Shown here piece after piece: positions 2,423 to 60,150 of a stretch of DNA of 64,000 nt. The translations under genes were made by a program, and so were the position numbers. Origin of the DNA: Candidatus Shapirobacteria bacterium (GTDB taxonomy: Bacteria; Patescibacteriota; Microgenomatia; UBA12405); assembly GCA_030698565.1 (NCBI GenBank), contig JAUYJS010000003.1:76187-140186 (forward strand), read 5' to 3'. Every line of letters begins with the position of its first letter. Positions within the stretch are counted from its first letter, which is position 1. The notes under the pieces were generated by a model that saw only the letters and a program-made list of their open reading frames with translations, was not told the origin of the DNA and ran no database searches.

Positions 2423-4408
2423 AAATCAATTTCTGGAATTATTAAATTTGGCTTTCTATTTTTGTTATTTTTTACGCCCTTAATTTTTACCTCCTTCAAC
2501 TCCGAGCTATTCGAATTGCCCAAAATGTATTTTGTTTATTTAATTACTCTAATTATTCTAACTTTACATTTAATCAATTTTTTTCAAAATAAATCCAAAC
2601 TATTATCCACCAATCTTCTTGTTTTACCTCTTTTTCTTTTTTTACTGTCCCAAGGTATTTCCACATATTTTTCCGTCGACCAGCATACCTCAATTTTTGG
2701 CTATTACTCTCGTCTCAACGGCGGTTTACTTTCACTGATCTCTTATATAATTCTTTTTTTAATTTTAACTGTTTATATCGATAAGCCTTTTATTCAAAAA
2801 ATTATCAATGTTTCCCTTATTTCCGGATTAATCGTTTCTATTTATGCCATTGCCGAACATTTTGGTATCGATAAAGATATTTGGCTTCAAGATGTCCAAA
2901 ACCGAGTCTTCTCCACTTTCGGTCAACCCAACTGGTTAGCCGCTTACCTTTGCATTTTGATTCCCATTGGTTTGGCTCAATCTGTTGAATATTTCTATAA
3001 AAAAAATAAAATTTTATTTTTAATTTATGATCTATCGGCTATCATTTTTTTTCTAGCTTTACTTTTTACAAAATCTAAATCCGGTATTATCGCCGCCATT
3101 ATTTCTCTAGGTTTATTTTTTATTTTAAGTTTTCTCAAAAACAAAAAGTCTCTAAAATTATTAATTCTTAATTCTTCATTATTAATTCTTTTCTCATTAT
3201 CAATCAACAATCCCATCAAAGATCTCCTATTTCCCCAAAAACTAAAGATTGCAGATTCTAAAATTGAAAATTTAAATATTACTCCCTCCGAAGATATCCG
3301 AAAAATTGTCTGGAAAGGAGCCTTAGAACTTTGGCAAAAATTTCCTCTATTTGGTACTGGAGTTGAAACTTTTGCCTATTCCTATTACTGGACCCGACCC
3401 GCCGAGCACAACTTAACTTCCGAATGGGATTTCCTTTACAACAAAGCTCATAACGAATATATTAACTACTTGGCCACCACGGGTGCCCTTGGCTTACTCA
3501 CCTACTCTATTTTCATCGGTGCCATTCTCCTCTTATTTGTTAAAACCATATTAAAAGATAAAGATAATATCTATTTAAATTTAGGTTTATTAACCGCTTT
3601 TATTTCCATTTTAATTACCAATATTGCCGGATTTTCGGTCGTTGTTATATCTCTTTATTTTTTCTTACTTCCAGTATTAATCTCCAAAGATAAATCCAGT
3701 TTTATATTTTCTTTTAATTTCCCTAAATTTATTTCGGCTACCAGTTCTATTGTCATTATAATAGTAGCTTTATTCCTTGGTCAAAAAACTCTTTTCTTTT
3801 ACCTGGCTGACATTACTTATGCCCAAGCTTCTGAATATGACGATCAAAATAAATATAATTTAGCCTATGAACGAATCCAAGAAAGTATTGCCTACAGAAA
3901 TGACGAACCTGTTTATTTAGATAAAGCTTCTTCAGTTACAGCCAAAATGGCTCTTGTCGCTCACAGTCAAAAGAATGACGCCTTAACTCAAAAATATATT
4001 TACGAAACCGAAAATTATTCTAATCAAGCCTTACTTATATCTCCCGCCAATATTAATTTCTGGAAAGAAAGAGCTCAAAGTTATTATTATCTTTCCAGTA
4101 TTGACCCAAAATACTTTCAAAATGCCATAACCGCCCTATCCAAAGCCACAATATTAGCCCCAACAGATGCCAAATCATTTTATTTATTAGGTAAATTTTT
4201 GCAAACAGCCAATCTATCCGACAAAGCCATTCCTTTTTACCAAAAAGCAATTGAACTCAAGTTTAATTACGATTATGCTTATTTTGATTTAGCCAAAATA
4301 TATTTCGATTCTAAAAACTATTCCGAAGCCAAAAAGTATTTTCAAATGGTCTTAAAATATGCTCCTGACAGCCAGGAAAGTAAAGATTATTTAAATAAAA
4401 TTAAGTAA
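2423..4408 (+). CDS. Polytopic membrane protein with an O-antigen ligase (Wzy_C)-like domain and C-terminal TPR repeats
   Basis: Multi-TM N-terminus, then WKGALELWQKFPLFGTGVETF...NKAHNEYINYLATTGALGL (O-antigen ligase/Wzy_C signature), then TPR-like repeats (AIPFYQKAIELKFNYDYAYFDLAKIYF). The start at 2423 is preferred over 2351, which overlaps mreB. Confidence 0.55.
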   Translation, partial: KSISGIIKFGFLFLLFFTPLIFTSFNSELFELPKMYFVYLITLIILTLHLINFFQNKSKLLSTNLLVLPLFLFLLSQGISTYFSVDQHTSIFGYYSRLNGGLLSLISYIILFLILTVYIDKPFIQKIINVSLISGLIVSIYAIAEHFGIDKDIWLQDVQNRVFSTFGQPNWLAAYLCILIPIGLAQSVEYFYKKNKILFLIYDLSAIIFFLALLFTKSKSGIIAAIISLGLFFILSFLKNKKSLKLLILNSSLLILFSLSINNPIKDLLFPQKLKIADSKIENLNITPSEDIRKIVWKGALELWQKFPLFGTGVETFAYSYYWTRPAEHNLTSEWDFLYNKAHNEYINYLATTGALGLLTYSIFIGAILLLFVKTILKDKDNIYLNLGLLTAFISILITNIAGFSVVVISLYFFLLPVLISKDKSSFIFSFNFPKFISATSSIVIIIVALFLGQKTLFFYLADITYAQASEYDDQNKYNLAYERIQESIAYRNDEPVYLDKASSVTAKMALVAHSQKNDALTQKYIYETENYSNQALLISPANINFWKERAQSYYYLSSIDPKYFQNAITALSKATILAPTDAKSFYLLGKFLQTANLSDKAIPFYQKAIELKFNYDYAYFDLAKIYFDSKNYSEAKKYFQMVLKYAPDSQESKDYLNKIK

Positions 4409-4964: not shown

Positions 4965-5014
4965 CCCTATATTTTATCAAATGCCATTGATTTTAAGTTA
5001 TAATTTCAATTAAC

Positions 5015-5878
5015 ATGATTAGAACAGTTTTCTTCGGATCTTCCGAATATTCCATTATTATTCTTCAAAGTCTTCTTAAAGCCGACAATTTTGAGGTAGT
5101 CACTGTCGTTAGTAAAGAAGACAAACCTACCGGTCGCCAACAAATTATTACTCCAAACCCCATGGCTAAATTTGCCAAGGAAAATAATTTAAACTTACTT
5201 CAACCCGCCAATTTTACTCCAGATTTTATTGATAAATTCAAAAAATTAGATCCTGATTTAGGTATAGTTGTTGCTTACGGCCCACCCTATTTTACAAAAG
5301 AAATGATCAACATCCCCATATTTAAAATCGTCAATATTCATCCATCACCTCTACCCAAATACCGCGGCGCCACACCTGGTCCCTGGCAAATAATTAATGG
5401 CGAAACTGAAAGTGCTGTTTCTTTTTTTCAAATCGACGCCCTACCCGATCATGGCTCCTTAATCGCCCAAATCCCTTTTAAAATCGAACCAAATGAAACC
5501 GCTCAGACTTTTTATAACAAGGCTTTTAATTTAGCTGCTTCAAATCTAGACTCTATTTTAGCTAAATATATTAACAATCCAAACGAACTAATTATCCAAG
5601 ATCATAGTCAAAAAACTTATTTTCCAAAATTTACCAAAGAATCAGCCCAAATCGACTGGTCTTGGTCAATACAAAAGATTGAAAGATTTATTCGAGCCCT
5701 AAGTCTTTGGCCAATTGCCTGGACTTACGTTGAAAACCAATTTCATCAAAAACTAAAAATGAAAATTTATTCATCTATATTAGACAAAGAAAATTTAGTA
5801 CCCAAAGACGTTCAAGTTGAAGGAAAAAAAATTACTTCATGGCGAGATATAAGCCAATATTATATTATCTTGAAGTAA
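5015..5878 (+). CDS. fmt: Methionyl-tRNA formyltransferase
   Basis: N-terminal formyltransferase domain with NIHPSPLPKYRGATP. Adjacent to def in the classic arrangement. Confidence 0.88.
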   Translation: MIRTVFFGSSEYSIIILQSLLKADNFEVVTVVSKEDKPTGRQQIITPNPMAKFAKENNLNLLQPANFTPDFIDKFKKLDPDLGIVVAYGPPYFTKEMINIPIFKIVNIHPSPLPKYRGATPGPWQIINGETESAVSFFQIDALPDHGSLIAQIPFKIEPNETAQTFYNKAFNLAASNLDSILAKYINNPNELIIQDHSQKTYFPKFTKESAQIDWSWSIQKIERFIRALSLWPIAWTYVENQFHQKLKMKIYSSILDKENLVPKDVQVEGKKITSWRDISQYYIILK

Positions 5879-6377: not shown

Positions 6378-6995
6378 ATGGTAAACATTTTATTCCTATT
6401 TTTTCTTATTATTGCGATTACCATCCATGAATTTTCCCACGCACTAGTCGCTGATTTTCTAGGCGACCCAACTCCTCGTTCTCATGGCCGTTTAACTTTA
6501 AATCCCATGGCTCATGCTGATTTATTTGGCACTATTCTTCTACCCCTTTTAAGTGCTCTTACAGGCATTCCTACTATCGGTTGGGCCAAACCAGTCCCAA
6601 TTGATCCTTACAATTTAGCTAATCCAAGAAGAGACGAATTTTTTATAGCTGCCGCTGGACCATTAAGCAATTTATTACTAGCTATAATCCTTTCTTTGGT
6701 GGTTCGTTTTTCAGGCATTAATAGCGATATTTTATCTATTGCTATTTTAATAAATATTTCCTTGGCTGTTTTCAACCTTATTCCTATTCCACCTCTTGAC
6801 GGTTCAAAAATTTTCTTCAATTTAATACCCGACTCTGAATCTTCATTGCAATGGCAAAAAACGTTAGATCAATACGGTTTTATTATCCTATTAGTATTAC
6901 TTTTTGTTCCTTTTGGTAATTCCAGTTTACTGAGATTAATTATGTCACCTATCATTCACGGATTCAGTAACCTCCTAATTCCAGCTCGTTTTTAA
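6378..6995 (+). CDS. Membrane zinc metalloprotease (site-2 protease/M50-like, HExxH)
   Basis: HEFSHAL motif in the first TM, a downstream LTLNP...D loop, and multiple TM segments. Confidence 0.55.
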   Translation: MVNILFLFFLIIAITIHEFSHALVADFLGDPTPRSHGRLTLNPMAHADLFGTILLPLLSALTGIPTIGWAKPVPIDPYNLANPRRDEFFIAAAGPLSNLLLAIILSLVVRFSGINSDILSIAILINISLAVFNLIPIPPLDGSKIFFNLIPDSESSLQWQKTLDQYGFIILLVLLFVPFGNSSLLRLIMSPIIHGFSNLLIPARF

Positions 6996-9084: not shown

Positions 9085-9837
9085 ATGACAGAAAGATTAA
9101 CCGGAGGATCGGAAATAAGTAGAACAATAGAGGGGGAAAGAACCTTCCCCACTCTAGATAATTTGCAAGAACATTTCATTAATTTATACGACAGAAGAAA
9201 CAATGTATATTTGCCAGGAAGAAATATCAGAATCGAACTCTTCTATCGTGGTGTGGCCGATTTAGTAGACGCCGTTAGAAAAGAAGCAAATGAATATAAT
9301 GTCGAAAACATGTTAGCTCGAGTAGTATCCAGGATTTTTTGTATTGCAAATGGCATTAATAATGTTTCTGTAGCAGAAGGTATGAGAATAAAATATCCTG
9401 CAAACGGATGTTTTTATTGTCATAACGTGCCATGCCAATGTCAAGAAAAAAGAAACGAGCCTGATACCACCCTTGATGTTAGTTCGGCCCAAAAAAACTG
9501 GAGTTTAAAAGATTGGCAAAAACACCTAAATAATCTTTATGGAGATAAGAACAAGAATCATGGCATCAGTTACATGCTCCTTAGATTGTCGTCTGAGATG
9601 GGAGAACTTATTACCGAAGAACATCAAGTTTCAAAAAGAATGATGGATGAAATTGAATCAGGCTACCAATTAGAACTTGCTGATTCATTAGCTTGGACGA
9701 TTGCTGTTGCTAATTTTCTCAATATTGATATTCAGCATGCTGTAGAAAGTCGATACAAAAATGGTTGTCAAAAATGTAGTCAACCTTCTTGTGTCTGTGG
9801 TCCCCACAGTTTTGATCAAATAAGATTTAATATTTAA
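9085..9837 (+). CDS. Hypothetical protein with a MazG-like NTP-pyrophosphohydrolase-type helical motif and two Cys-rich clusters
   Basis: LRLSSEMGELITEE...ELADSLAWTIAVANFLNID (MazG-like EExxE...D), plus CFYCHNVPCQCQ and CQKCSQPSCVCGP. Confidence 0.35.
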   Translation: MTERLTGGSEISRTIEGERTFPTLDNLQEHFINLYDRRNNVYLPGRNIRIELFYRGVADLVDAVRKEANEYNVENMLARVVSRIFCIANGINNVSVAEGMRIKYPANGCFYCHNVPCQCQEKRNEPDTTLDVSSAQKNWSLKDWQKHLNNLYGDKNKNHGISYMLLRLSSEMGELITEEHQVSKRMMDEIESGYQLELADSLAWTIAVANFLNIDIQHAVESRYKNGCQKCSQPSCVCGPHSFDQIRFNI

Positions 9838-23213: not shown

Positions 23214-23278
23214 AGTTAGGAATCTCTAAATTATAACATCCAAAATGGCTTAAACTTCCAAAAATAAATTAATTAATT

Positions 23279-23354
23279 TGGTGGACCTAAGGGGACTCGA
23301 ACCCCTGACCTTCCCCATGCCATGGGGACGCGCTACCAACTACGCTATAGGCCC
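23279..23354 (-). tRNA. tRNA-Ala (anticodon GGC), copy 1, CCA encoded
   Basis: Reverse complement gggccta...tccccATGGCATgggga...ggggttcgagtcccc-taggtcc-a-cca. G3:U70 Ala identity pair present. Confidence 0.85.
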
Positions 23355-23395
23355 AAATTTTATATGAAAGTTCTTTTTATCAATTTTGCGTAAAT

Positions 23396-24001
23396 TTACA
23401 AAACTTCCCGAGGTAATCTATAAATATAAATTCCTAATCCTGTTGAAACAATCGACATCACAATAAAGATGATTGGATAGCCAAAAAATTGAATTAATAC
23501 TCCACCTATTAAAGCCGCAAAACCTGTTACTATCGCCGCAATTCCTTCCCATCTCCCCCATTCAATAATAGAATTCTCTTTACTGGTGTGACTAGAATAT
23601 ACAGAGTCGAACGCTGGTGTACCAATAGCCGTAGCCACACCCCAAAGAACCTGTGTCAAAATCAGCTGAGGAATATTATTCATCAAAGCATAACTAAAAA
23701 ATACTCCTCCTCTTAAAACATAACCCAAAGCAATCAATAACTCCGGCTCTTTCACCTTTAATTGCCAATTAGAAAATAAAAATATTAAAATACCGCTAAC
23801 CATAGAATATACCGCCCAAGACAATCCAGCAAAAGCAATATTTCCGCCTATCTCTTGAACAAAAACAGCATAAAATGGCGCAAACAAATTCAAAATAAAT
23901 ACCAATATTGAATTAGCTGTGACCAAGATGGTTAAGCTTTTATTAATCCGCGTATGAGGAAAAACAAAACCAAATATCGTTTTTAATTTATTAATTACCA
24001 T
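23396..24001 (-). CDS. Half-size MFS-transporter-like membrane protein (about 200 aa, 6 TM; resembles the C-terminal half of an MFS transporter); possibly a gene fragment
   Basis: Six hydrophobic segments with MFS-like loop motifs. The start at MVINKLK abuts the tRNA-Ala copy 2. The track ORF extends into the tRNA and is trimmed here. Confidence 0.4.
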   Translation of the reverse strand: MVINKLKTIFGFVFPHTRINKSLTILVTANSILVFILNLFAPFYAVFVQEIGGNIAFAGLSWAVYSMVSGILIFLFSNWQLKVKEPELLIALGYVLRGGVFFSYALMNNIPQLILTQVLWGVATAIGTPAFDSVYSSHTSKENSIIEWGRWEGIAAIVTGFAALIGGVLIQFFGYPIIFIVMSIVSTGLGIYIYRLPREVL

Positions 24002-24004
24002 TTG

Positions 24005-24077
24005 TGGACCTAAGGGGACTCGAACCCCTGACCTTCCCCATGCCATGGGGACGCGCTACCAACTACGCTATAGGCCC
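24005..24077 (-). tRNA. tRNA-Ala (anticodon GGC), copy 2, identical to copy 1 over 73 nt but without encoded CCA
   Basis: Same 73-nt sequence as 23282-23354. The 3' flank reads ACAAAT instead of ACCAAAT. Confidence 0.8.
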
Positions 24078-24174
24078 GAATCAAACTCACTATTTTAACA
24101 AATTTTCCCACATAACCATATATCCAATCAGACACTCCCCAACTTTTATATGATCTGATATTATTAAGGCACTT

Positions 24175-25957: not shown

Positions 25958-26036
25958 GTTCTTTAACAAACCGTAAACTTTGAAATTTCGAATCCGATTG
26001 TGAGTACACACTGTGTATTTAGAACCGGATTCGAAA
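25958..26036 (+). promoter_or_regulatory. 5'-UTR element: conserved motif TCTTTAACAAACCGTAAACTTT followed by a 12-bp perfect inverted repeat with a nested palindrome
   Basis: The motif is also present at 27096-27119. Arms atttcgaatccg (25986-25997) and cggattcgaaat (26025-26036) enclose tacaca-c-tgtgta. Confidence 0.45.
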
Positions 26037-26058
26037 TATGTTTTTGGAGGTTGAGACA

Positions 26059-26637
26059 ATGCTTAAGAAGATGATTTCCGTTTTCTTGATTCTGGGTTTA
26101 GTGTTTATCACCCGGTCTGTCCCAGTTTTTGCTGGCGGTACTTCCGATAACCCCGGAAGCTACTACGTCGCACCGGTCAGTATTATCCTAACTTCAAATG
26201 GAAATGCCAGCCTCAATGCCAACGTCTTACTACCATACGGCACAATGGCTGAGATGGGCGACGAAGTCTACTATTCCACTATCAACTCTTTTGACATCCC
26301 AATGAAGGCCCTAGATTCACTAAAAGTCTTTGATCCTGTCAGTATGGTCGTTACCAGGGTTACTTACTCCGGCGTCAATACTCCAGCATCATTCGTCTCG
26401 ATTCCCATTGTAAAGATCAACGTCCCATACAACTACCAGGCTTGGAAGATGACCTACATCGACATCAAGTGCAATGAGGATTACACCTCCTGCACCGGCG
26501 GCTGGTCAATCACCCGATACCTGGGCGGCAATATCTACAAATTGACCCTTGAAAGGGGTAGCACCTTAATCATCCAACCAACCGACGATATCCTCAACAA
26601 TCGGCTTTTGCCACCCATCTTAGCCCAAATAGGCTAA
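26059..26637 (+). CDS. Secreted hypothetical protein, GC-rich relative to the genome
   Basis: SD ggagg 8 nt upstream. Signal peptide MLKKMISVFLILGLVFITRSVPVFAGG. Composition is clearly above the local background. The start at 26059 is preferred over the track's 26038. Confidence 0.55.
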   Translation: MLKKMISVFLILGLVFITRSVPVFAGGTSDNPGSYYVAPVSIILTSNGNASLNANVLLPYGTMAEMGDEVYYSTINSFDIPMKALDSLKVFDPVSMVVTRVTYSGVNTPASFVSIPIVKINVPYNYQAWKMTYIDIKCNEDYTSCTGGWSITRYLGGNIYKLTLERGSTLIIQPTDDILNNRLLPPILAQIG

Positions 26638-26724
26638 TTTCCCACCGGAACCAAAGGAGCGTCGAAGTTCTACTTCGACCTCCTTCCCTTTCGGGGGAAA
26701 ATCTTCAAAGTTTACGGTGTACAT

Positions 26725-26763
26725 ATCCTATAACTTGACATTATTAAACATTACTGTTACACT
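26725..26763 (+). promoter_or_regulatory. Promoter repeat copy 2 (ATCCTATAAC-TTGACA-17-TACACT)
   Basis: TTGACA 26735-26740. A -10-like TACACT at 26758-26763. Confidence 0.45.
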
Positions 26764-26905
26764 ACTTCAGTTCATTAAAAATTAGACAAAAATAAATACC
26801 AAAGGAGAGATGTTGGGGTGGGCTCCTCTAAAGATCTTCACTCCATTTCTCCTTTGCTATTTATATAATATTTTAAAAAAACCTCCATTAATTTGGAGGT
26901 TTTTT
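26764..26905 (+). ncRNA. Candidate small RNA (or 22-aa micro-ORF) between promoter repeat 2 and a strong bidirectional terminator
   Basis: About 140 nt with no ORF of 60 aa or more. A 13-bp near-perfect inverted repeat caaaggagaGatg...catttctcctttg. Terminator aaaaaaacctcca-ttaatt-tggaggtttttttt at 26872-26905. Confidence 0.35.
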
Positions 26906-26915
26906 TTGGTCCCCT

Positions 26916-27023
26916 ATCCTATAACGACTGACATTATTAATTAAATTCCTTCATCCAGCTCTGGTTTGCAAATTGTGTTTTGTTATCCTATAACTTGATT
27001 TTTTTACCATTTAATGCTATAAA
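26916..27023 (+). promoter_or_regulatory. Promoter repeat copies 3 (degenerate: ATCCTATAACGACTGACATTATTA) and 4 (ATCCTATAAC-TTGATT-17-TATAAA)
   Basis: Copy 4: TTGATT 26995-27000 and TATAAA 27018-27023 with 17-nt spacing. Confidence 0.45.
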
Positions 27024-27277
27024 CATCCATAGCAAGAAATTGCTTGTAAGTTGATTATATTTTAGACAATGCGTCTAATTCTCATAATCAATTTAGCTCT
27101 TTAACAAACCGTAAGACTTTTGTTGAAAAAAGAATATCTCATTACATTTAGGCTTGTGTAGAAGAATGATGATGAAATTTTGGAAGAAAAAAATTGGGTA
27201 ATAAAACCCATTCACATAGGCCCCGGCCCCGGCAGAGATCCAATTTTTTTTGCGTAATACGCAAAGGAGGAATTTTC

Positions 27278-28189
27278 ATGTCCGCACCCGGAACAACACC
27301 GACCCGTACCCGCAGGTCTCTTAATTGGCTCACGCGTCACTGGTTCCCAATCCTGATGGTGATGATCGCGCTGGCGGTGCTAGTAGTTTGGCTATTCGTA
27401 TGGCATCCATGGAAGACCACCACTGCCCCGGCACCCGTTGTACCTGCAACTTCCACTACTGCTGTCACTGTTCCAGGAATCGATACTCTGACTGAAGCGG
27501 TCAAGGGAAACACGAAGGCGACGTCCGAAAACACCACTGCGACAATCGACAACACGGCAGCTACAAAGGAGAACACAACGACCTTGAAAAGCAACACCGA
27601 CAAGGTGATTGCTACTGCACCAGCTGCACCTGCACCGGCTCCTGCGCCTACCGTCGTTTACGTCCCGATCCATGTGTCTGCTCCTACTCCTGTTGTTACC
27701 GAATGGGTTACTGAACATGAACTGGACCTGACCCCAAACAAGGGCCATAGAATGTATCAGGTTAGATACAATAATGGAAGAAGAACCGAAGAAATTCGGT
27801 ACTTCACTCCCGAGAGATATATTACTCTCGAGGGAGACATTACTACTCCAACTTCTACCGTCGTCTATGTCCCGACCCCTGCACCTGCTCCGGCTCCCAC
27901 TGGCAACGACTGCCAAGAGTGGACAAAGAACACTAATGGCTCAATGAGTTGGGTCGGCCCAACTGACGGTACGATGAGTATTTGTCAGACGGGGACATGG
28001 CTCGACTGGATTCGCGCCGGGCACACGGCTGTTTTCAGCGTCTCCGTTCCGGGGACACTGGAAATCACCACCGGTTCTTATTCCACCCAAGTCACCGGGA
28101 ATGTGATCACCTACACGGTGATCAACAGTTCCGGCCCTAGTGGCGGCTTCCGCTGGACCCCTCAACAAGGGTACGGCTGGAGACGCTAA
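27278..28189 (+). CDS. GC-rich membrane-anchored Thr/Pro/Ala-rich protein with an internal repeat (hypothetical)
   Basis: SD aaaggagg 7 nt upstream. N-terminal TM anchor (WFPILMVMIALAVLVVWLFVW). The internal repeat APAPAPAPTVVYVP appears twice. Composition is far more GC-rich than the surrounding low-GC genome. The start at 27278 is preferred over the track's 27194. Confidence 0.55.
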   Translation: MSAPGTTPTRTRRSLNWLTRHWFPILMVMIALAVLVVWLFVWHPWKTTTAPAPVVPATSTTAVTVPGIDTLTEAVKGNTKATSENTTATIDNTAATKENTTTLKSNTDKVIATAPAAPAPAPAPTVVYVPIHVSAPTPVVTEWVTEHELDLTPNKGHRMYQVRYNNGRRTEEIRYFTPERYITLEGDITTPTSTVVYVPTPAPAPAPTGNDCQEWTKNTNGSMSWVGPTDGTMSICQTGTWLDWIRAGHTAVFSVSVPGTLEITTGSYSTQVTGNVITYTVINSSGPSGGFRWTPQQGYGWRR

Positions 28190-28277
28190 AAGTCTAAAAG
28201 TCTTACGATTTCAAAAAGGTGGCAGGGTCCTGCAAGCTCTTCGGATTTATCCGAATCTTGTAGTTTCCTGTCCCCTG

Positions 28278-28328
28278 TTCCATTATCGATGTGTGTCGAT
28301 ACTGATGAGTCCAAAAGGACGAATGGAA
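28278..28328 (+). ncRNA. Hammerhead-ribozyme-like motif (type III topology) with a U15.1:A16.1 variant helix III. Ends 6 nt before the GT2 start codon.
   Basis: uucca-U-UAUCGA-ugugug-UCGAUA-CUGAUGA-GUCC-aaaa-GGAC-GAA-uggaa. Helix I, the CUGAUGA core, the GUCC/GGAC helix II and GAA are the same as the canonical copy at 59460-59520. Helix III is fully compensated but carries the noncanonical 15.1/16.1 pair. Confidence 0.45.
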
Positions 28329-28333
28329 ATTTT

Positions 28334-29254
28334 ATGAAAAAAAATAAACAATCTTTAATATCCGTAATTATGCCGGTCTTTAACGCCGACAAATATTTAA
28401 AAGATGCTATAGACAGCATTTTAAATCAAACCTACTCTAATTTTGAATTTATTATTATTGACGATTCTTCAACTGATAATTCTTGGTCCATCATCAAAAA
28501 CTACCAAAAAATAGACAAACGAATTGTTGCCCGAAAAAATAGAAAAAATTCAGGTGTAGCTACAACTTTAAATAAAGCCTTAAAACTTTGCCACGGTGAA
28601 TATGTTGCTCGAATGGACGCCGATGATATTTCTTTGCCAAAACGTTTCCAAATTCAGCTGCACTACTTAAAAAAACACCCCGAAATTGTCGGTGTTGGCA
28701 CCCAAGTAAATATTATTAATAATTCCAACAAAATTACCGGTAAACGCTATTTTCCTACCACCACCAAAGATTGTTACCAATTTTTAATGATCACATCTCC
28801 TATTCAACATCCCACACTAATGGTCCGCACTCAAACCATAAAAAAATATCAATATTCAGCCAACTACAAAACAGCCGAAGATTGGGATCTTTACTTTAAA
28901 TTAGTTCAAAATAATCAATTAAATAATATCAATAAAACTCTTTATAATTATCGACAAAACTTTGGTAGCAACGGCTACAAAAACATCAAAAAAGCATTTA
29001 TTTTAATATTCAAAATTAGATTAAATGCCATTTTAAAACTAAACTATCATCCTTCAATAAAAGGACTTATTATTACTTTTCTCCAAGCCATTCTGGTTTT
29101 TTCCCTACCAGAAAAATTGGTTTTTAATCTATTCACTCTCTGGCGAGTCAGACAACTTTATTTTTTCGAAAATATTCAACTCCCACAATTATTACCAAAC
29201 AATTTAAAAGCCAACCAGCCCAAACTATTTGATTTGGCCAATAATCAGCCTTAA
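28334..29254 (+). CDS. Family 2 glycosyltransferase
   Basis: ISVIMPVFNADKYL...NFEFIIIDDSSTDNS (GT2 DxD region). The start at 28334 (MKKNKQ) is preferred. Its 3' end overlaps the convergent gene by about 107 nt. Confidence 0.7.
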   Translation: MKKNKQSLISVIMPVFNADKYLKDAIDSILNQTYSNFEFIIIDDSSTDNSWSIIKNYQKIDKRIVARKNRKNSGVATTLNKALKLCHGEYVARMDADDISLPKRFQIQLHYLKKHPEIVGVGTQVNIINNSNKITGKRYFPTTTKDCYQFLMITSPIQHPTLMVRTQTIKKYQYSANYKTAEDWDLYFKLVQNNQLNNINKTLYNYRQNFGSNGYKNIKKAFILIFKIRLNAILKLNYHPSIKGLIITFLQAILVFSLPEKLVFNLFTLWRVRQLYFFENIQLPQLLPNNLKANQPKLFDLANNQP

Positions 29255-56879: not shown

Positions 56880-58313
56880 ATGCCAACTATTCAAACCAAC
56901 AAGCGCCGCATCTACACTCTCAACAAATTAAAACCAGAAATCACCGCTGTAACTTTTGCCAAATGCTCCCGCTCTCCCGATTCTTTTAAAAATATTGCCA
57001 AGGAATTAACCGAAGCCAAATCCAGCGCTTTCAATGAAAAATATGTGGTTGGTTATGGCCATGGCTCAGTTGCCGAGCATGCCACCTTGCACATGGCAAT
57101 CGAAAACGTTTCTATTTTAGCGACCAAAGTTTTAGAAGATAACCGCCTTGGTTCTTATACTGAAAAATCCACCCGTTACCAAGTTTACGATCGCACCCGC
57201 TACTACAAACCCAAAAATATCATGCGTTCTGAATTTGGCAAATTATATAAAGAGACTATGAATTTTATTTTCGATACCTATTGCTCACTTTTTGAACCAA
57301 TGAAAGCTTTCATACTCAAAAAATACCCCAAAGGTGCAAAGGAAAATGATATGGCTTACAATGCCGTCCTCAAATCCCGAACTTGTGATAATATCCGCTA
57401 TCTTTTACCCACAGCCACTTTAACTAATTTAGGGATGACCACCAACGCTCGGGTTTTGGAACACGCCATTGTCAAACTTTTGTCCAATCCATTAGACGAA
57501 ATGAAACAAATTGGAGAAGAGGTCAAATCCCAAGCCATAAAAGTCACTCCGACTTTACTTAAATACGCTCAACCAAATCCATATCTAGTAAACACCACAA
57601 AAAAGTTAGAAGAGCTAAGCCATAAAATTTTACCCAAAAATATTAATCCCAGTATTCCAGTTCAAATTGTTAATTATGACCAAGACGCTGAAAATAGATT
57701 GATTACCGCCCTTCTTTATAACGGTTCCAATTTGCCCTATAACCAAATTTGGCATGAAGTCAAAAAAATGTCCCAAACTGATAAAGAAAATATAATCGAT
57801 GAAGCTCTAAAAAATCGCAGTGCCTTTGACGCTCCTATACGCGAGTTAGAACACGTTTATTATACTTTTGATATCTTGATGGATTATGGTGCTTTCCGCG
57901 ACATTCAACGCCACCGCATGTGCACTCAAACCAATCAAGATGTTACTATCGATCATGGTTTCGATACCCCTCCAGAAATTATTGAAGCCGGTCTAAAAGA
58001 ACCTTATTTAAAAGCGATCAACAAAGCCGTTGCACTTTATCAAGCCATGTCCCCAAAATTCCCCAAAGAAGCTCAATATGCGGTTCCCCTCGCTTTCCGG
58101 AAAAGAGTTTTATTTACCTGGAATTTGCGCGAACTTCATCATTTCATTTCCCTGCGAAGTACCAAAAAAGGCCATATTTCTTATCGCCGAATTGCTCAAG
58201 CCTGTTGGCAACAATTAAATGAAATTCATCCGCTTTTAGCCAAATACATCCGAGTCGACATGACCGAAGGATCCTCTTCTTGGGCCGCATCGATGTACAA
58301 GCAGGTGAAATAA
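56880..58313 (+). CDS. thyX: FAD-dependent thymidylate synthase ThyX-like, double-length (477 aa)
   Basis: ThyX N-terminal pattern (AVTFAKCSRSPDS...YGHGSVAEHATLHMAIENVS...RYQ) and a second RHR-containing module (RHRMCTQT) in the C-terminal half. Confidence 0.6.
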   Translation: MPTIQTNKRRIYTLNKLKPEITAVTFAKCSRSPDSFKNIAKELTEAKSSAFNEKYVVGYGHGSVAEHATLHMAIENVSILATKVLEDNRLGSYTEKSTRYQVYDRTRYYKPKNIMRSEFGKLYKETMNFIFDTYCSLFEPMKAFILKKYPKGAKENDMAYNAVLKSRTCDNIRYLLPTATLTNLGMTTNARVLEHAIVKLLSNPLDEMKQIGEEVKSQAIKVTPTLLKYAQPNPYLVNTTKKLEELSHKILPKNINPSIPVQIVNYDQDAENRLITALLYNGSNLPYNQIWHEVKKMSQTDKENIIDEALKNRSAFDAPIRELEHVYYTFDILMDYGAFRDIQRHRMCTQTNQDVTIDHGFDTPPEIIEAGLKEPYLKAINKAVALYQAMSPKFPKEAQYAVPLAFRKRVLFTWNLRELHHFISLRSTKKGHISYRRIAQACWQQLNEIHPLLAKYIRVDMTEGSSSWAASMYKQVK

Positions 58314-58315
58314 AC

Positions 58316-58352
58316 ATCCTATATTTCAATTTATATGTAAATTTGGTATAAT
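58316..58352 (+). promoter_or_regulatory. Promoter with an extended -10 (TGgTATAAT) preceded by an ATCCTATA block, then a 5'-UTR 15-bp hairpin
   Basis: atcctatatttcaatttatatgtaaatttggtataat. Further downstream, cggtaacacgtttct...agaaatgtgttaccg (14/15 complementary). Confidence 0.45.
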
Positions 58353-58509
58353 CCGGGCGTTTACTAGAATTCAAAAAATAAAGCATTTATTGAATTTTTT
58401 AAGCACCTTAAAATTTGCAGAACACTATTTTTCGGTAACACGTTTCTGAATAGACTAAAGTATTTAGAAATGTGTTACCGAATCTAATTTTGAAAGGAAT
58501 GAATCTTCA

Positions 58510-59400
58510 ATGGAAATCAGAACGATACCTGTTTCAAGTTCAAAAATGCACCCAATGACGCGACCCGGTTACTTAGCCAATATGTTTCAACAAACCGGTG
58601 GATTCCAGTCAATGCTCCTTGCCAATTATCTGGCTCAAGAACACCAACGAGGCGAAGGTATCAAGAGTCACACTGAAGTCTTATCTGTGATCATCGACGG
58701 TCAACGGTTGGAAATGACCTTGGATCAAATCAATGATCATTTGGCTAAGCTATCAGGGAATATTCCTCAACTTGAAGCCGTCGTTTCCTGGGGAAGAGAT
58801 CCATACCAAAAAGTTCTCTCTTGGATACATGGCCTACCCAACTCCTCACACGAACGTCCGATGATTCAGGAAGGACCACACTTGGTCCTGGCTCTTTATA
58901 GCTATGCCAAGGATGGCCTTCGTCTTTACCGGACTCTTCAGAGAAGGCCGTTCGACGTTAAAATTGATACGGTCCGGGGGTTCACTGGCACAACAGAAGA
59001 AATGTATGGCAACACCAACCCTGACGTCATTCTCCAACACATTGTCAAAACCATCGGCGACGAAGCTGGTCAAAAGTGTCTTGACATCCGGGACATCGTT
59101 TTCCTCGGCGCCCATCATGTCAACTCTTCTTTTGTCCAATCAAGAACCGCTCTCTTCGGGATCGAAATCGACCGAGACAGATTCCTGGAAAGCAATCGTG
59201 TGTTTACATCTGAAGAAGCAAAAAGGATGGAGCGACAGTACCAACAGCAGGGTTTACTCAGTCAAATTATTGAACTGACTATCCCTCAGTTTTTGGCTTA
59301 CGGATGTCACCCCGACGTCTGTCGTGACTTCACGGCCGATGCCCCCCATCAAGCAATATTGTCTGCTCATCTCCTCAACCTCCTTAAACCTTCCAACTAA
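58510..59400 (+). CDS. GC-rich hypothetical cytoplasmic protein (296 aa)
   Basis: The ORF is much more GC-rich than its neighbours. It has its own promoter and is followed by a strong terminator. Confidence 0.5.
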   Translation: MEIRTIPVSSSKMHPMTRPGYLANMFQQTGGFQSMLLANYLAQEHQRGEGIKSHTEVLSVIIDGQRLEMTLDQINDHLAKLSGNIPQLEAVVSWGRDPYQKVLSWIHGLPNSSHERPMIQEGPHLVLALYSYAKDGLRLYRTLQRRPFDVKIDTVRGFTGTTEEMYGNTNPDVILQHIVKTIGDEAGQKCLDIRDIVFLGAHHVNSSFVQSRTALFGIEIDRDRFLESNRVFTSEEAKRMERQYQQQGLLSQIIELTIPQFLAYGCHPDVCRDFTADAPHQAILSAHLLNLLKPSN

Positions 59401-59428
59401 GAGAATCGGGTTCTCCCGATTCTCTCCC
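59401..59428 (+). terminator. Intrinsic terminator-like hairpin (11-bp perfect stem)
   Basis: agagaatcggg-ttct-cccgattctct. Confidence 0.6.
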
Positions 59429-59459
59429 CCTCCGGGGGTCAATGTAATTAGTGTTCTGT

Positions 59460-59520
59460 AAATATGGTCTATCGAAAAATCGATACTGATGAGTCCCGTA
59501 GGACGAAACCAAATATTTTT
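59460..59520 (+). ncRNA. Canonical type III hammerhead ribozyme motif
   Basis: aauaugg-U-C | UAUCGA-aaaa-UCGAUA CUGAUGA GUCC-cgua-GGAC GAA A-ccaaauauu. Every core position is canonical: CUGAUGA, G10.1:C11.1, G12A13A14, A15.1:U16.1, and a GUC cleavage triplet. Confidence 0.6.
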
Positions 59521-59666
59521 AATTCACTCTATATACTTCGTTATGAGTTCCAATATTTACAAAATGAGCTATGCCGTTTTCAACAAAATAAATCATTCTA
59601 ATACTATCATTAATTGAAATACTCCAATAACCATTCAAGTAACCTTTCAATTTAAAGTAAAATATC

Positions 59667-59933
59667 TCACTTATTCAGTTTATCAAGAATTTTATCAAAA
59701 TATTCATCAGTATTCCTAACTTTAATCCATTTTACTTTTCCACTTTTTGCATCTCGAATATTTTTTAATGTTTCTTCAGAAAATTCTAAATCATCGCTTT
59801 CCTCCAAATCCTTTATCATCAAATATCTGGTATATGCCGCCAAACTTATACCATATTTAACGGCTTTCCTTTTTATTTTGCTCTTAATTGAATCTGATAA
59901 ATTTATTTTTATTTGACTTTGTTTAGTTTCCAT
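59667..59933 (-). CDS. Small RHH/antitoxin-like DNA-binding protein (orphan)
   Basis: KINLSDSIKSKIKRKAVKYGISLAAYTRYLM resembles ribbon-helix-helix antitoxins. No adjacent toxin ORF was found. Confidence 0.35.
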   Translation of the reverse strand: METKQSQIKINLSDSIKSKIKRKAVKYGISLAAYTRYLMIKDLEESDDLEFSEETLKNIRDAKSGKVKWIKVRNTDEYFDKILDKLNK

Positions 59934-60015
59934 AAACTAATTATACCCCTATTTCAGTACTTTTCCAGGACCTTAATTTATTCGAACTTATTTTTTACTT
60001 TACTTTAAAAATTTG

Positions 60016-60150
60016 TGCTATAATAACCCCATCTTAACCGAAGACAGTAGGCTTGGCTAATCACCATTGAAAAGTCCTACCGAGGCAAAAGCAATTTGTT
60101 TTTATTTTGCGCCTCGATCTTCGAGGTTTTTTTTATTTTAATAACAAATT
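60016..60150 (+). promoter_or_regulatory. rplJ promoter (TGcTATAAT) and L10-leader-like structured 5' UTR ending in an attenuator terminator
   Basis: Extended -10 at 60016-60024. Hairpins gtagg...cctac. gcgcctcgatcttcgagg followed by a T-run at 60109-60134, just before the rplJ ATG. Confidence 0.5.

Follow-up and report, generated by a model that had tools for sequence, protein, structure and literature searches.

We identified a type III hammerhead ribozyme motif on the forward strand at positions 28278–28328 of the window (the whole stretch of DNA analyzed, 64 kb, from a Shapirobacteria-like member of the CPR), upstream of a glycosyltransferase gene. Its core pair 15.1:16.1 is inverted, U:A in place of the canonical A:U. 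The structure is under selection, the inversion recurs in about 40 distinct hammerheads from bacterial genome and metagenome contigs, canonical hammerheads occupy the same place at orthologous loci and the motif directly adjoins the glycosyltransferase start. On this comparative evidence we consider it somewhat more probable than the opposite (roughly 60%) that the element is a self-cleaving hammerhead that processes the transcript between its upstream gene and the GT2 glycosyltransferase gene.

A type III hammerhead with an inverted core pair

An earlier note on this DNA had proposed a hammerhead-like element here; its transcription of 28278–28328 matched the window exactly, and the proposal was borne out by sequence parsing, folding and 40 covarying relatives. 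The motif begins with the 5′ strand of helix III, UUCCA (28278–28282), whose last base is A16.1 according to the parse and the covariation across the 40 sequences. U17 (28283) follows, unpaired and thus conforming to the non-G rule at this position (H17), and the hammerhead register places the predicted self-cleavage site between 28283 and 28284. Helix I (28284–28301), recovered by parsing, folding and covariation, comprises 7 bp (UAUCGAU/GUCGAUA), with 28284–28290 pairing to 28295–28301 and a U·G pair closing a GUGU tetraloop. The parsed catalytic core is complete, with CUGAUGA at 28302–28308 (C3 U4 G5 A6 N7 G8 A9) and GAA at 28321–28323 (G12 A13 A14). Between these two segments lies helix II (28309–28320; parse and folding), in which GUCC and GGAC pair around an AAAA loop and G28309:C28320 forms the closing pair G10.1:C11.1. 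The 3′ strand of helix III, UGGAA (28324–28328; parse and covariation), completes the motif with U15.1 as its first base. In both the parse and the centroid folds, helices I and II are capped by loops and helix III is the open end of the three-helix junction. The centroid fold of 28186–28350 consisted of this three-way junction and a long hairpin 5′ of it (z = −4.2).

The element departs from the canonical motif at one pair. Instead of A15.1:U16.1, the basis of the NUH rule, U28324 pairs with A28282 and the triplet before the predicted cleavage site is CAU, as the earlier note had claimed; no alternative register at 28278–28328 restores A:U. Searching with a hammerhead covariance model, as had been suggested, did return the element, but only as a local match to Rfam RF00008 with 17.8 bits, below the gathering score of 48.5. 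Canonical hammerheads, both the window's and those of CPR-type contigs, likewise stay under that score, at 32–45 bits, so the RF00008 threshold does not discriminate within this group. A covariance model built from 40 inverted-pair sequences, the window’s own among them, gave 73.3 bits at 28278–28328 and 38.3 bits at 59463–59513. With filters off, this model detected no further diverged hammerheads in the 64-kb window. A minus-strand match, CTGAAGAGTCC...GACGAA at 58919–58941, was dismissed as a chance occurrence within an ORF (10.7 bits, E = 1.1). Judged by sequence, the loops at 28278–28328 (loop I GUGU/UGUGUG, loop II AAAA) resemble those of canonical hammerheads from phages and CPR.

The second hammerhead in the window lies at 59466–59510 on the forward strand and is canonical by parse and Rfam, with GGU-C17, A15.1:U16.1 and a GUC triplet; RF00008 matched it at full length (59462–59514, 41.1 bits). 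Its helix I is identical in sequence to that at 28278–28328, a sharing already pointed out in the earlier note, which had counted 6 bp and missed the seventh, U·G closing pair. Shuffles predict 0.01 occurrences of the 18-base core CTGATGAGTCCNNNNGGACGAA in the window, which contains it twice, at 28302 and at 59486. A repeat or mobile element common to both copies was ruled out, as their BLAST match is a 28-nt core confined to the ribozyme and their flanks are unrelated. The ORFs upstream of the two hammerheads are also unrelated to each other, and the canonical copy is located 3′ of a hypothetical gene (58510–59400) and converges on a RelE/RelB-like pair. The two copies are not orthologous. 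Selection on the structure, first argued from covariation between them, thus holds on other and better grounds, namely the 40 covarying relatives and the hammerheads at orthologous GT2 loci.

Recurrence of the U15.1:A16.1 pair

For pattern scans, we fixed CUGAUGA-GUCC-N4-GGAC-GAA with a non-A (or T) at 15.1 and placed no constraint on helix I, helix III or position 16.1. Matches comprised 27 genome stretches (~22 full hammerheads) and 31 metagenome stretches, and about 40 distinct inverted-pair hammerheads were obtained from bacterial genome and metagenome contigs. CPR-labelled MAGs, assigned to Saccharibacteria, Woesebacteria, Gottesmanbacteria, Dojkabacteria, Parcubacteria and Microgenomates, hold 15 of the ~22 full genome hammerheads, and most of the non-CPR ones stem from low-G+C bins labelled Gammaproteobacteria. 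In a gapless alignment of 40 distinct sequences, 96.2% of the cells were paired, a value that dropped to 26–40% when the pairing partners were slid. Changes on both sides of a pair numbered 184, compared to 55 ± 9 in shuffles. Helix I alone showed 98.9% paired cells and both-side changes at six of its seven pairs. Position 16.1 was A in all 40 sequences and N17 was C in 35, U in three, A in two and G in none. Core conservation within this set is built in by the search pattern, while pairing, covariation, A16.1 and the N17 distribution were not imposed by it. A variant found independently of the pattern, at 6579–6631 of contig L160, likewise carries U15.1:A16.1. Among 2.9 million viral contigs, cores with the inverted pair or any other non-A15.1 base numbered zero; the same core with A15.1 occurred in >120 contigs. 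By these sequence criteria, the element at 28278–28328 is a member of a natural hammerhead subclass with U:A at 15.1:16.1 and not a lone degenerate copy. Members of such a subclass would be cleaved 3′ of an NAH triplet, which in the window copy is CAU.

Alternation of canonical and inverted pairs at orthologous loci

GT2 orthologs were retrieved by protein alone, which is independent of the pattern and makes them an unbiased test of the core (L181–L187, n = 7, a count that leaves out two JGI ortholog loci). A hammerhead is present 0–9 nt before the GT2 ATG in six of the seven (L181, L182, L184, L185, L186 and L187), and all six are canonical type III with A:U; the L183 GT2 locus has none. Locus L125 also carries a canonical hammerhead before its GT2 gene. 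In the GT2 tree, U:A appears in two separate clades: the window and L121 (U:A) adjoin the six A:U loci, and L123, L136 and L139 (U:A) surround L125 (A:U). No other type of 15.1:16.1 pair and no mismatch occurs among the loci of this tree. The distribution over the tree suggests that the A:U and U:A states are functionally interchangeable.

The inverted-pair locus L121 differs from the window within the 51-nt hammerhead by one structure-preserving change (U·G to U–A) and in the remaining spacer by some eight changes plus an indel of 9 nt, an excess over the hammerhead that is not statistically significant. With 95% identity between their GT2 proteins, the two loci are too close for their shared inversion to prove selection. 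For the closest SHMT relative, the contig (42 kb) stops short of the GT2 locus.

These data bear on whether the inversion killed the ribozyme, leaving a neutral remnant or just a stable 5′-UTR or 3′-UTR structure. A15.1:U16.1 is the hammerhead’s most conserved pair and U:A variants are far less active in vitro (PMC3088659); the low RF00008 score and the restriction of viral cores to A15.1 point in the same direction. A dead ribozyme would be expected to accumulate further damage in core and helices, yet about 40 copies pair perfectly at 15.1:16.1 and retain a non-G17 (mostly C) and covarying helices. The L160 variant shows the same pair without having been selected for it, and two GT2 clades either gained or retained the inversion. 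We therefore judge loss of catalysis to be quite unlikely. According to published data on mutants and variants, altering 15.1/16.1 lowers the rate at least 10-fold (PMC3088659), and a natural U15.1-A16.1 hammerhead showed low but detectable self-cleavage, less efficient than typical ones (Perreault et al. 2011, PMC3088659, PLoS Comput Biol 7:e1002031, Fig. 5/S6). The suggestion that the window copy has impaired catalysis and was co-opted for a structural role fits poorly with this precedent, the recurrent inversion, the invariant A16.1, the absence of G17 and the alternation with the canonical pair at the locus, which together make a working, probably slower ribozyme the more economical reading. 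The copy at 28278–28328 would accordingly be expected to cleave, probably at a lower rate than canonical ones.

Gene neighborhood and proposed transcript processing

The upstream gene (27278–28189, forward strand, ORF call) encodes a 303-aa hypothetical protein without Pfam, NCBIfam or convincing PHROG match. Unlike most genes here, it has a strong SD, AGGAGG, 7 nt ahead of its ATG. Its G+C content is elevated, with 0.447 for the 2-kb bin 26001–28000 compared to about 0.29–0.39 in every other bin. Its protein shares 64% identity with the L121 ortholog, against 95% for GT2; by this comparison, the upstream gene evolves fast. We presume it to be the source of a transcript running into the hammerhead. 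Positions 28217–28276 (forward strand, centroid fold) comprise a long, imperfectly paired hairpin and, after it, a C/U-rich linker; for lack of a U-tract, the hairpin was rejected as an intrinsic terminator. The hairpin shows compensatory changes relative to L121, and equivalents precede the hammerheads of L181, L182, L184 and L187. More generally, variant hammerheads are preceded by comparatively structured RNA: over the 60 nt before them, the median was −15.0 kcal/mol versus −11.1 kcal/mol in control windows (p = 0.003). Neither a promoter-like site nor a U-tract terminator was found in 28190–28333, and the upstream gene and GT2 may be co-transcribed.

On the other side of the hammerhead, the A/U-rich spacer AUUUU (28329–28333, forward strand) separates it from the start codon by 5 nt, one fewer than previously stated. 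The GT2 glycosyltransferase gene (28334–29254, forward strand) encodes a 306-aa, EpsE/TuaG-like protein (Pfam PF00535, E = 3.5e-36; NCBIfam). Its true start is 28334, where the N-terminus MKKNKQSLISVIMPV aligns with those of the orthologs; the start at 28370 given by one gene caller was discarded as it would delete the conserved LISVIM residues. An in-frame ATG at 28289 falls within the ribozyme. The locus is syntenic across genomes, with an NTP-transferase, DUF11/LPXTG proteins, GT2, a convergent large ORF and SHMT.

This operon-like order, with a surface-protein-like gene, a long hairpin, a C/U-rich linker, the hammerhead, 5 nt and the GT2 start, suggests how processing might proceed. Self-cleavage between 28283 and 28284 would part the upstream message from the GT2 message. 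The former would then end in the hairpin and a 2′,3′-cyclic phosphate, and the hairpin may protect this 3′ end. The GT2 message would start with a 5′-OH and the compact hairpins of helices I and II. The 5-bp helix III would dissociate after cleavage, so that the A/U-rich nucleotides ahead of the AUG would become single-stranded. It is plausible that the hammerhead is in some way coupled to the start of the GT2 message, and cleavage may affect GT2 expression.

One way in which it could do so is by lowering expression: if cutting were constitutive and the 5′-OH GT2 fragment degraded faster, in a glmS-like manner through RNase J, the distal gene would be kept low relative to the upstream surface-protein gene. 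In Bacillus, a 5′-OH end is a substrate of RNase J1, as with glmS, and at the present locus the hairpin would shield the upstream product, with no equivalent cap at the downstream 5′ end. Helices I and II at the new 5′ end would, however, be expected to hinder 5′ exonucleases, and translation would seem to be what the conserved, unstructured A/U spacer and the short distance to the ATG are kept for. We regard such down-regulation as unlikely.

Alternatively, the intact hammerhead might block the 30S subunit at the GT2 start, with cleavage or unfolding needed for translation and the slow U:A core setting the translatable fraction. Helix III and the start codon keep a conserved spacing, 0–17 nt in every GT2-linked locus read. 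Most spacers of at least 5 nt are A/U-rich, including those of 7–14 nt at L123, L125, L136, L139, L181, L182 and L184; those of L185–L187 (0–6 nt) are not, and at L187 the 3′ strand of helix III directly abuts the ATG. A GG(A) is located in or just past this strand in the window, L181, L182 and L136. In eukaryotic RNA viruses, cleavage of a 5′-UTR hammerhead was reported to be necessary for translation initiation (bioRxiv 10.1101/2024.05.16.594327). These arguments are set against the scarcity of a clear ribosome-binding site to occlude: 49 of the 54 window genes of at least 150 aa show no SD-like sequence within the 22 nt preceding their ATG. Many window genes have TATAAT-like boxes 6–9 nt before the ATG and look leaderless. 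A G-rich element is missing near the ATG of L123, and helix III, with its 5 bp, offers little resistance. Many of the variant hammerheads do not adjoin a start codon, and the gene facing the canonical copy at 59466 is convergent. Such gating of translation is therefore a possibility that we hold only tentatively. Occlusion of an SD as the specific mechanism, proposed earlier with ‘ggacgaauggaaa’ as the occluded site, was rejected: the only candidate is the GGA inside UGGAA, a genome largely without such motifs makes ‘ggacgaauggaaa’ an improbable SD, and what stands of the proposal is the conserved proximity of hammerhead and ATG.

Relation to known hammerheads

The processing ribozyme proposed here shares many features with the phage/bacterial group of type III RF00008 hammerheads (for example, PaP3): the helix-III-open junction, CUGAUGA...GAA, G10.1:C11.1, H17 and a GUCC/GGAC helix II, as well as loop I (U)GUGU(G), an AAAA loop II (NAAA in the group), an upstream hairpin and a pyrimidine-rich linker. 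These shared features occur in >120 viral contigs, and the PaP3 construct (reverse complement of the oligonucleotide in the supplement of Perreault 2011) has a loop I of the type at 28278–28328. The window element differs from the group in U:A instead of A:U, CAU (NAH) instead of NUH and a score under the gathering threshold. Hosts of the inverted pair are, unlike those of the phage group, mostly CPR among genome contigs with a taxon label, and the inverted pair has no viral-contig matches. The U15.1-A16.1 variant of Perreault 2011 represents the same natural inversion. That variant was one sequence among several rare core variants, whereas about 40 covarying sequences are described here, with conserved loops and alternation with the canonical pair at an orthologous locus.

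Hammerheads between genes have precedents. Tandem hammerheads in polycistronic RNAs self-cleave during in vitro transcription (PMC3088659), and triple hammerheads surround ardA in a prophage-like region of Agrobacterium, where cleavage would give separate mRNAs (Perreault 2011, PMC3088659). As in these arrays, the ribozymes described here lie between genes of what would be one transcript, and L160 has three units in a row. The window, in contrast, carries a single ribozyme in a syntenic, chromosomal cell-envelope locus that is not an obvious prophage. A functional parallel is offered by the RiboJ-type insulator, an engineered sTRSV hammerhead placed in the 5′ UTR, with an added hairpin that exposes the SD. 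Like the window element, it is type III, has a GUCC-N4-GGAC helix II directly before the translation start and removes upstream RNA; the element at 28278–28328, by contrast, is natural, has an inverted core pair and belongs to a genome largely without SD motifs. Our literature search, which was incomplete in coverage, returned no match for hammerheads in CPR/Patescibacteria, and a prior description is possible.

The NUH cleavage rule, on which motif searches and ribozyme design draw, rests on A15.1:U16.1. Standard descriptors and the Rfam threshold thus overlook real hammerhead diversity, which is concentrated in CPR-labelled genomes where labels exist. The ~40 inverted-pair hammerheads provide natural material on how the active site tolerates inversion, and the syntenic locus of hairpin, hammerhead and GT2 start offers a direct test bed for the long-standing question of bacterial hammerhead function.

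Genomic contexts of further hammerheads

A broader reading would extend the processing role to lineage-specific NAH hammerheads of CPR, with canonical and inverted forms routinely cutting internal genes from operon transcripts at their start codons and the inverted pair representing a selected, tunable core that is slower or condition-dependent. We consider this generalization doubtful. CPR-type contigs do carry arrays of hairpin–hammerhead–gene units, three of them within 1.35 kb at L160. Contexts are nevertheless heterogeneous, and many variant hammerheads have no same-strand ORF downstream within 300 nt, so freeing a start codon cannot be their general role. A common upstream protein family was rejected on the basis of Pfam and all-against-all BLAST analysis of 45 upstream ORFs, which are mostly unannotated and, save for close orthologs, unrelated. 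A single downstream gene family was likewise rejected, with GT2 in five of 33 cases; among the other downstream genes of this set are those for RF-1, NusA, EF-Tu, a pilin-like protein and products without match.

An inverted core pair in a type III hammerhead

The sequence at 28278-28328, just 5′ of the glycosyltransferase gene GT2 (28334-29254, plus strand), was identical on re-reading to that of the earlier note, and both its architecture and its core are those of a hammerhead. In hammerhead numbering, it comprises the 5′ strand of helix III (UUCCA, 28278-28282) ending in A16.1, U17 (28283), helix I (UAUCGA and UCGAUA around UGUGUG, 28284-28301; 7 bp counting the U.G pair that closes the GUGU loop), C3-A9 (CUGAUGA, 28302-28308), helix II with its AAAA loop (GUCC and GGAC, 28309-28320), G12-A14 (GAA, 28321-28323) and the 3′ strand of helix III (UGGAA, 28324-28328), which begins with U15.1. 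Five A/U bases, not the six previously given, separate 28328 from the ATG at 28334. The reported swap to U15.1:A16.1 (hereafter ‘flipped’; cleavage triplet CAU) held, as no alternative register restores A15.1:U16.1. The thermodynamic centroid of 28186-28350 placed a long hairpin (28217-28276) ahead of the hammerhead three-way junction (z = -4.2).

The motif described earlier is genuine and far above chance: the window has two occurrences of the 18-base core pattern, at 28302 and 59486, versus 0.01 expected. The second copy (59466-59510) is fully canonical, with A15.1:U16.1 and a GUC triplet; likeness between the two is limited to the ribozyme, and their flanks have nothing in common. The Rfam type III model matched the canonical copy at full length with 41.1 bits and the flipped element only locally with 17.8 bits, both below the gathering score of 48.5 bits. 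Because the element lacks the defining A15.1:U16.1 pair and falls under this threshold, we class it as a type III hammerhead with a variant core rather than a standard member.

A pattern scan found CTGATGAGTCCNNNNGGACGAA in at least 120 viral contigs. Many of the matches listed are type III hammerheads organised like the window element, with a hairpin rich in G+C, then a pyrimidine-rich linker and YGUC ahead of a 6-7-bp helix I (GUGUG/GAGUG-type loop), GUCC-NAAA-GGAC and GAA-ACRG. In the remainder, the core is arranged as in type I, and in all viral matches listed GAA is followed by A, which the pattern did not demand. The window element shares loop I (UGUGUG), loop II (AAAA) and the hairpin plus linker with the viral type III group, and its loop I is of the type found in the hammerhead of phage PaP3 that Perreault et al. 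(2011) assayed; we rebuilt the PaP3 sequence by reverse-complementing an oligonucleotide from their supplement. These sequence features place the window element in a large type III group from phages and bacteria. Beyond the mere presence of a hairpin, a near-identical one, GUGUCUUCAAAGACAC, lies 5′ of many viral type III hammerheads (L008, L012, L017, L026, L029, L031, L041, L045, L046, L056, L062 and other viral stretches) and may serve one phage group as a conserved signal for protein binding or processing.

Flipped hammerheads form a covarying set

Scans were repeated demanding a non-A base at 15.1 or, for metagenome contigs, T. The non-A15.1 pattern gave no match in 2.9 million viral contigs but matched 27 stretches among the species-representative genomes, and the T15.1 scan yielded 31 metagenome stretches. 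A handful were rejected as chance matches inside high-G+C coding sequence; all others parse as complete type III hammerheads. Among about 22 real genome matches, 15 came from metagenome-assembled genomes labelled Saccharibacteria, Woesebacteria, Gottesmanbacteria, Dojkabacteria, Parcubacteria or Microgenomates, and the remainder mostly from low-G+C bins labelled Gammaproteobacteria.

Forty distinct flipped sequences with a 7-4-7 helix I architecture could be aligned without gaps. Standard pairs filled 96.2% of cells, versus 72% after shuffling and 26-40% with partners slid, and both-side changes affected 184 cells versus 55 +/- 9 in shuffles. Helix I was 98.9% paired, with both-side changes in six of its seven pairs, and the three helix III pairs adjoining 15.1:16.1 were 100% paired with four pair types each. 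All 40 sequences carry A16.1, while N17 was C in 35, U in three and A in two, with no G. The search pattern had left helices I and III, 16.1 and N17 free, so the pairing and covariation evidence is unbiased; core conservation among the 40 follows from the pattern by construction and carries no evidential weight. Covariation across these relatives thus bears out the earlier proposal that the structure is under selection. Independently of the pattern, the covariance model added one more U15.1:A16.1 hammerhead (metagenome contig L160, 6579-6631), in which helix II differs and position 7 is C.

A natural U15.1-A16.1 hammerhead self-cleaved with low activity, and wild-type hammerheads outperformed 15.1/16.1 mutants at least 10-fold (Perreault et al., PMC3088659). 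Cleavage at NAH sites reportedly reaches a few percent of that at GUC, a result attributed to the 1998 work of Kore and colleagues on the ‘NHH rule’. Within the full-text searchable literature, ‘U15.1’ appeared in the 2011 Perreault paper only, which leaves a single precedent for the inversion itself, and searches combining hammerheads with Patescibacteria, candidate phyla radiation (CPR) or Saccharibacteria returned nothing. No description of a coherent flipped subclass turned up there, nor of its presence in CPR genomes or of a locus at which it alternates with canonical hammerheads.

Two flipped hammerheads (L166 4284-4373 and L167 7001-7084) carry a 30-40-nt insertion in helix I after the GUGU motif and are still full-length covariance-model matches (47-55 bits). 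L137 (about 3228-3280 and 5012-5064) and L144 (1318-1370 and 3090-3142) each contain paired identical flipped hammerheads about 1.8 kb apart with identical 5′ flanks, every copy ahead of a large ORF (~390-470 aa); a tRNA and a 23S rRNA gene lie a few kb downstream of the L144 pair.

Flipped and canonical ribozymes alternate at GT2 loci

GT2 homologs were obtained by protein search and their contigs by exact protein look-up, with no RNA pattern involved. The loci are syntenic, with an NTP-transferase and then DUF11-type and hypothetical ORFs ahead of the intergenic spacer, and GT2, a convergent ~900-1100-aa ORF and SHMT behind it. The window (G+C ~35%) encodes an SHMT sharing 72-76% identity with proteins under the NCBI name Candidatus Shapirobacteria and with one named Woesebacteria. 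Its genes around GT2 look like a cell-envelope locus: besides the NTP-transferase there are unannotated proteins, a DUF11 protein bearing an anchor of the LPXTG type, and GT2 itself, which is EpsE/TuaG-like.

One contig (L122) was the same as the window. The closest relative (L121, GT2 95% identical) has a flipped hammerhead with a single change, the helix I closing U.G becoming U-A; there are compensatory changes in the hairpin upstream, and the remaining spacer is more diverged. Six loci (L181, L182 and L184-L187; GT2 identity 51-57% in the GT2 alignment, 56-61% by local BLASTP) each carry a canonical type III hammerhead (GUU, GUA or GUC) ending 0-9 nt before the GT2 ATG, two with an extended helix II. 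No hammerhead was found at the L183 locus (GT2 47%). Flipped hammerheads recurred 9-12 nt ahead of the ATG in L123, L136 and L139 (GT2 38-41% identical); the one in L125, where GT2 shares 81% identity with the L136 protein, is canonical. In a neighbour-joining tree of GT2 proteins, U:A fell in two separate clades, each time beside A:U relatives, and the GT2 loci examined had only these two pairs. We infer from this crude tree that the two states are probably functionally interchangeable at the locus, and that the flip would have arisen, or the ribozyme been replaced, more than once.

RNA processing as the proposed function

The 144-nt spacer between GT2 and the upstream hypothetical gene (27278-28189) contained no sigma-70-like promoter match, and hairpin 28217-28276 had no U-tract; GT2 would therefore most simply be expressed by read-through. 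The upstream gene has a strong AGGAGG Shine-Dalgarno (SD) motif, raised G+C and no family match, and evolves much faster (64% identity to L121 versus 95% for GT2).

The best-supported reading of the ribozyme is RNA processing by predicted self-cleavage. Cutting after U28283 would leave the long hairpin at the 3′ end of the upstream mRNA and the compact ribozyme body at the start of the GT2 mRNA; after cleavage, the 5-bp helix III could no longer stay together, so that the A/U-rich run before the AUG would become single-stranded. A strong hairpin precedes about half of the flipped hammerheads, and the 60 nt upstream of them fold more stably than control windows (median -15.0 versus -11.1 kcal/mol, p = 0.003). 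CPR-type contigs contain hairpin-hammerhead-gene arrays (for example, three units in L160), resembling the tandem hammerheads in polycistronic RNAs that self-cleave during in vitro transcription (Perreault et al., PMC3088659). A putatively functional, probably slower ribozyme is more likely than the impaired, co-opted element envisaged in the earlier note.

The L160 trio lies on the minus strand of its locus within 1.35 kb (5284-5336, 5731-5783 and 6579-6631) and comprises one canonical and two flipped copies, one of the latter with C7 and C.A at 10.1/11.1. A GGGAGA...UCUCCC hairpin directly precedes the flipped copies and an unrelated one the canonical unit; an ATG follows each hammerhead after 29-32 nt, giving an array of hairpin-hammerhead-small-gene units.

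Cleavage might also be linked to the GT2 translation start, a rival to processing or an extension of it that we consider less likely. Such a link is suggested by the very tight distance of 0-17 nt that is conserved between hammerhead and ATG at the GT2 locus. The earlier idea that folding occludes a ribosome-binding site in ggacgaauggaaa is weakened: SD-like motifs were absent before 49 of 54 window ORFs of at least 150 aa, and in many window genes a TGnTATAAT-like extended -10 box stops 6-9 nt short of the ATG (example ATGs at 9085, 5015, 49894 and 51579, plus strand; 62374, 23009 and 2396, minus strand), which together suggest that leaderless mRNAs are widespread in this Shapirobacteria-like genome. 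The canonical copy, moreover, has no downstream gene to translate; ahead of it stands a convergent pair of a short RelE-like toxin fragment (59519-59650) and a RelB-like antitoxin (59667-59933), both on the minus strand, next to an L10 leader (60020-60142) and rplJ/rplL. This argues for a general role in transcript-end formation rather than start-codon control.

Mechanical ORF finders lengthen GT2 by 15 codons from an in-frame ATG at 28289, in loop I of the ribozyme, and one gene caller chose 28370; ortholog N-termini favour 28334. The unannotated genes 5′ of both window hammerheads occupy high-G+C bins (0.447 for 26001-28000, by far the window maximum, and 0.393 for 58001-60000; ~0.29-0.38 elsewhere) and are among the few with an SD-like motif (AGGAGG, AGGA), on which grounds they may be foreign. 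Elsewhere in the window, a 93-nt direct repeat (23268-23358 and 23990-24081, 96% identical) bearing identical minus-strand tRNA genes (23282-23354 and 24005-24077) flanks an ORF at 23396-24046.
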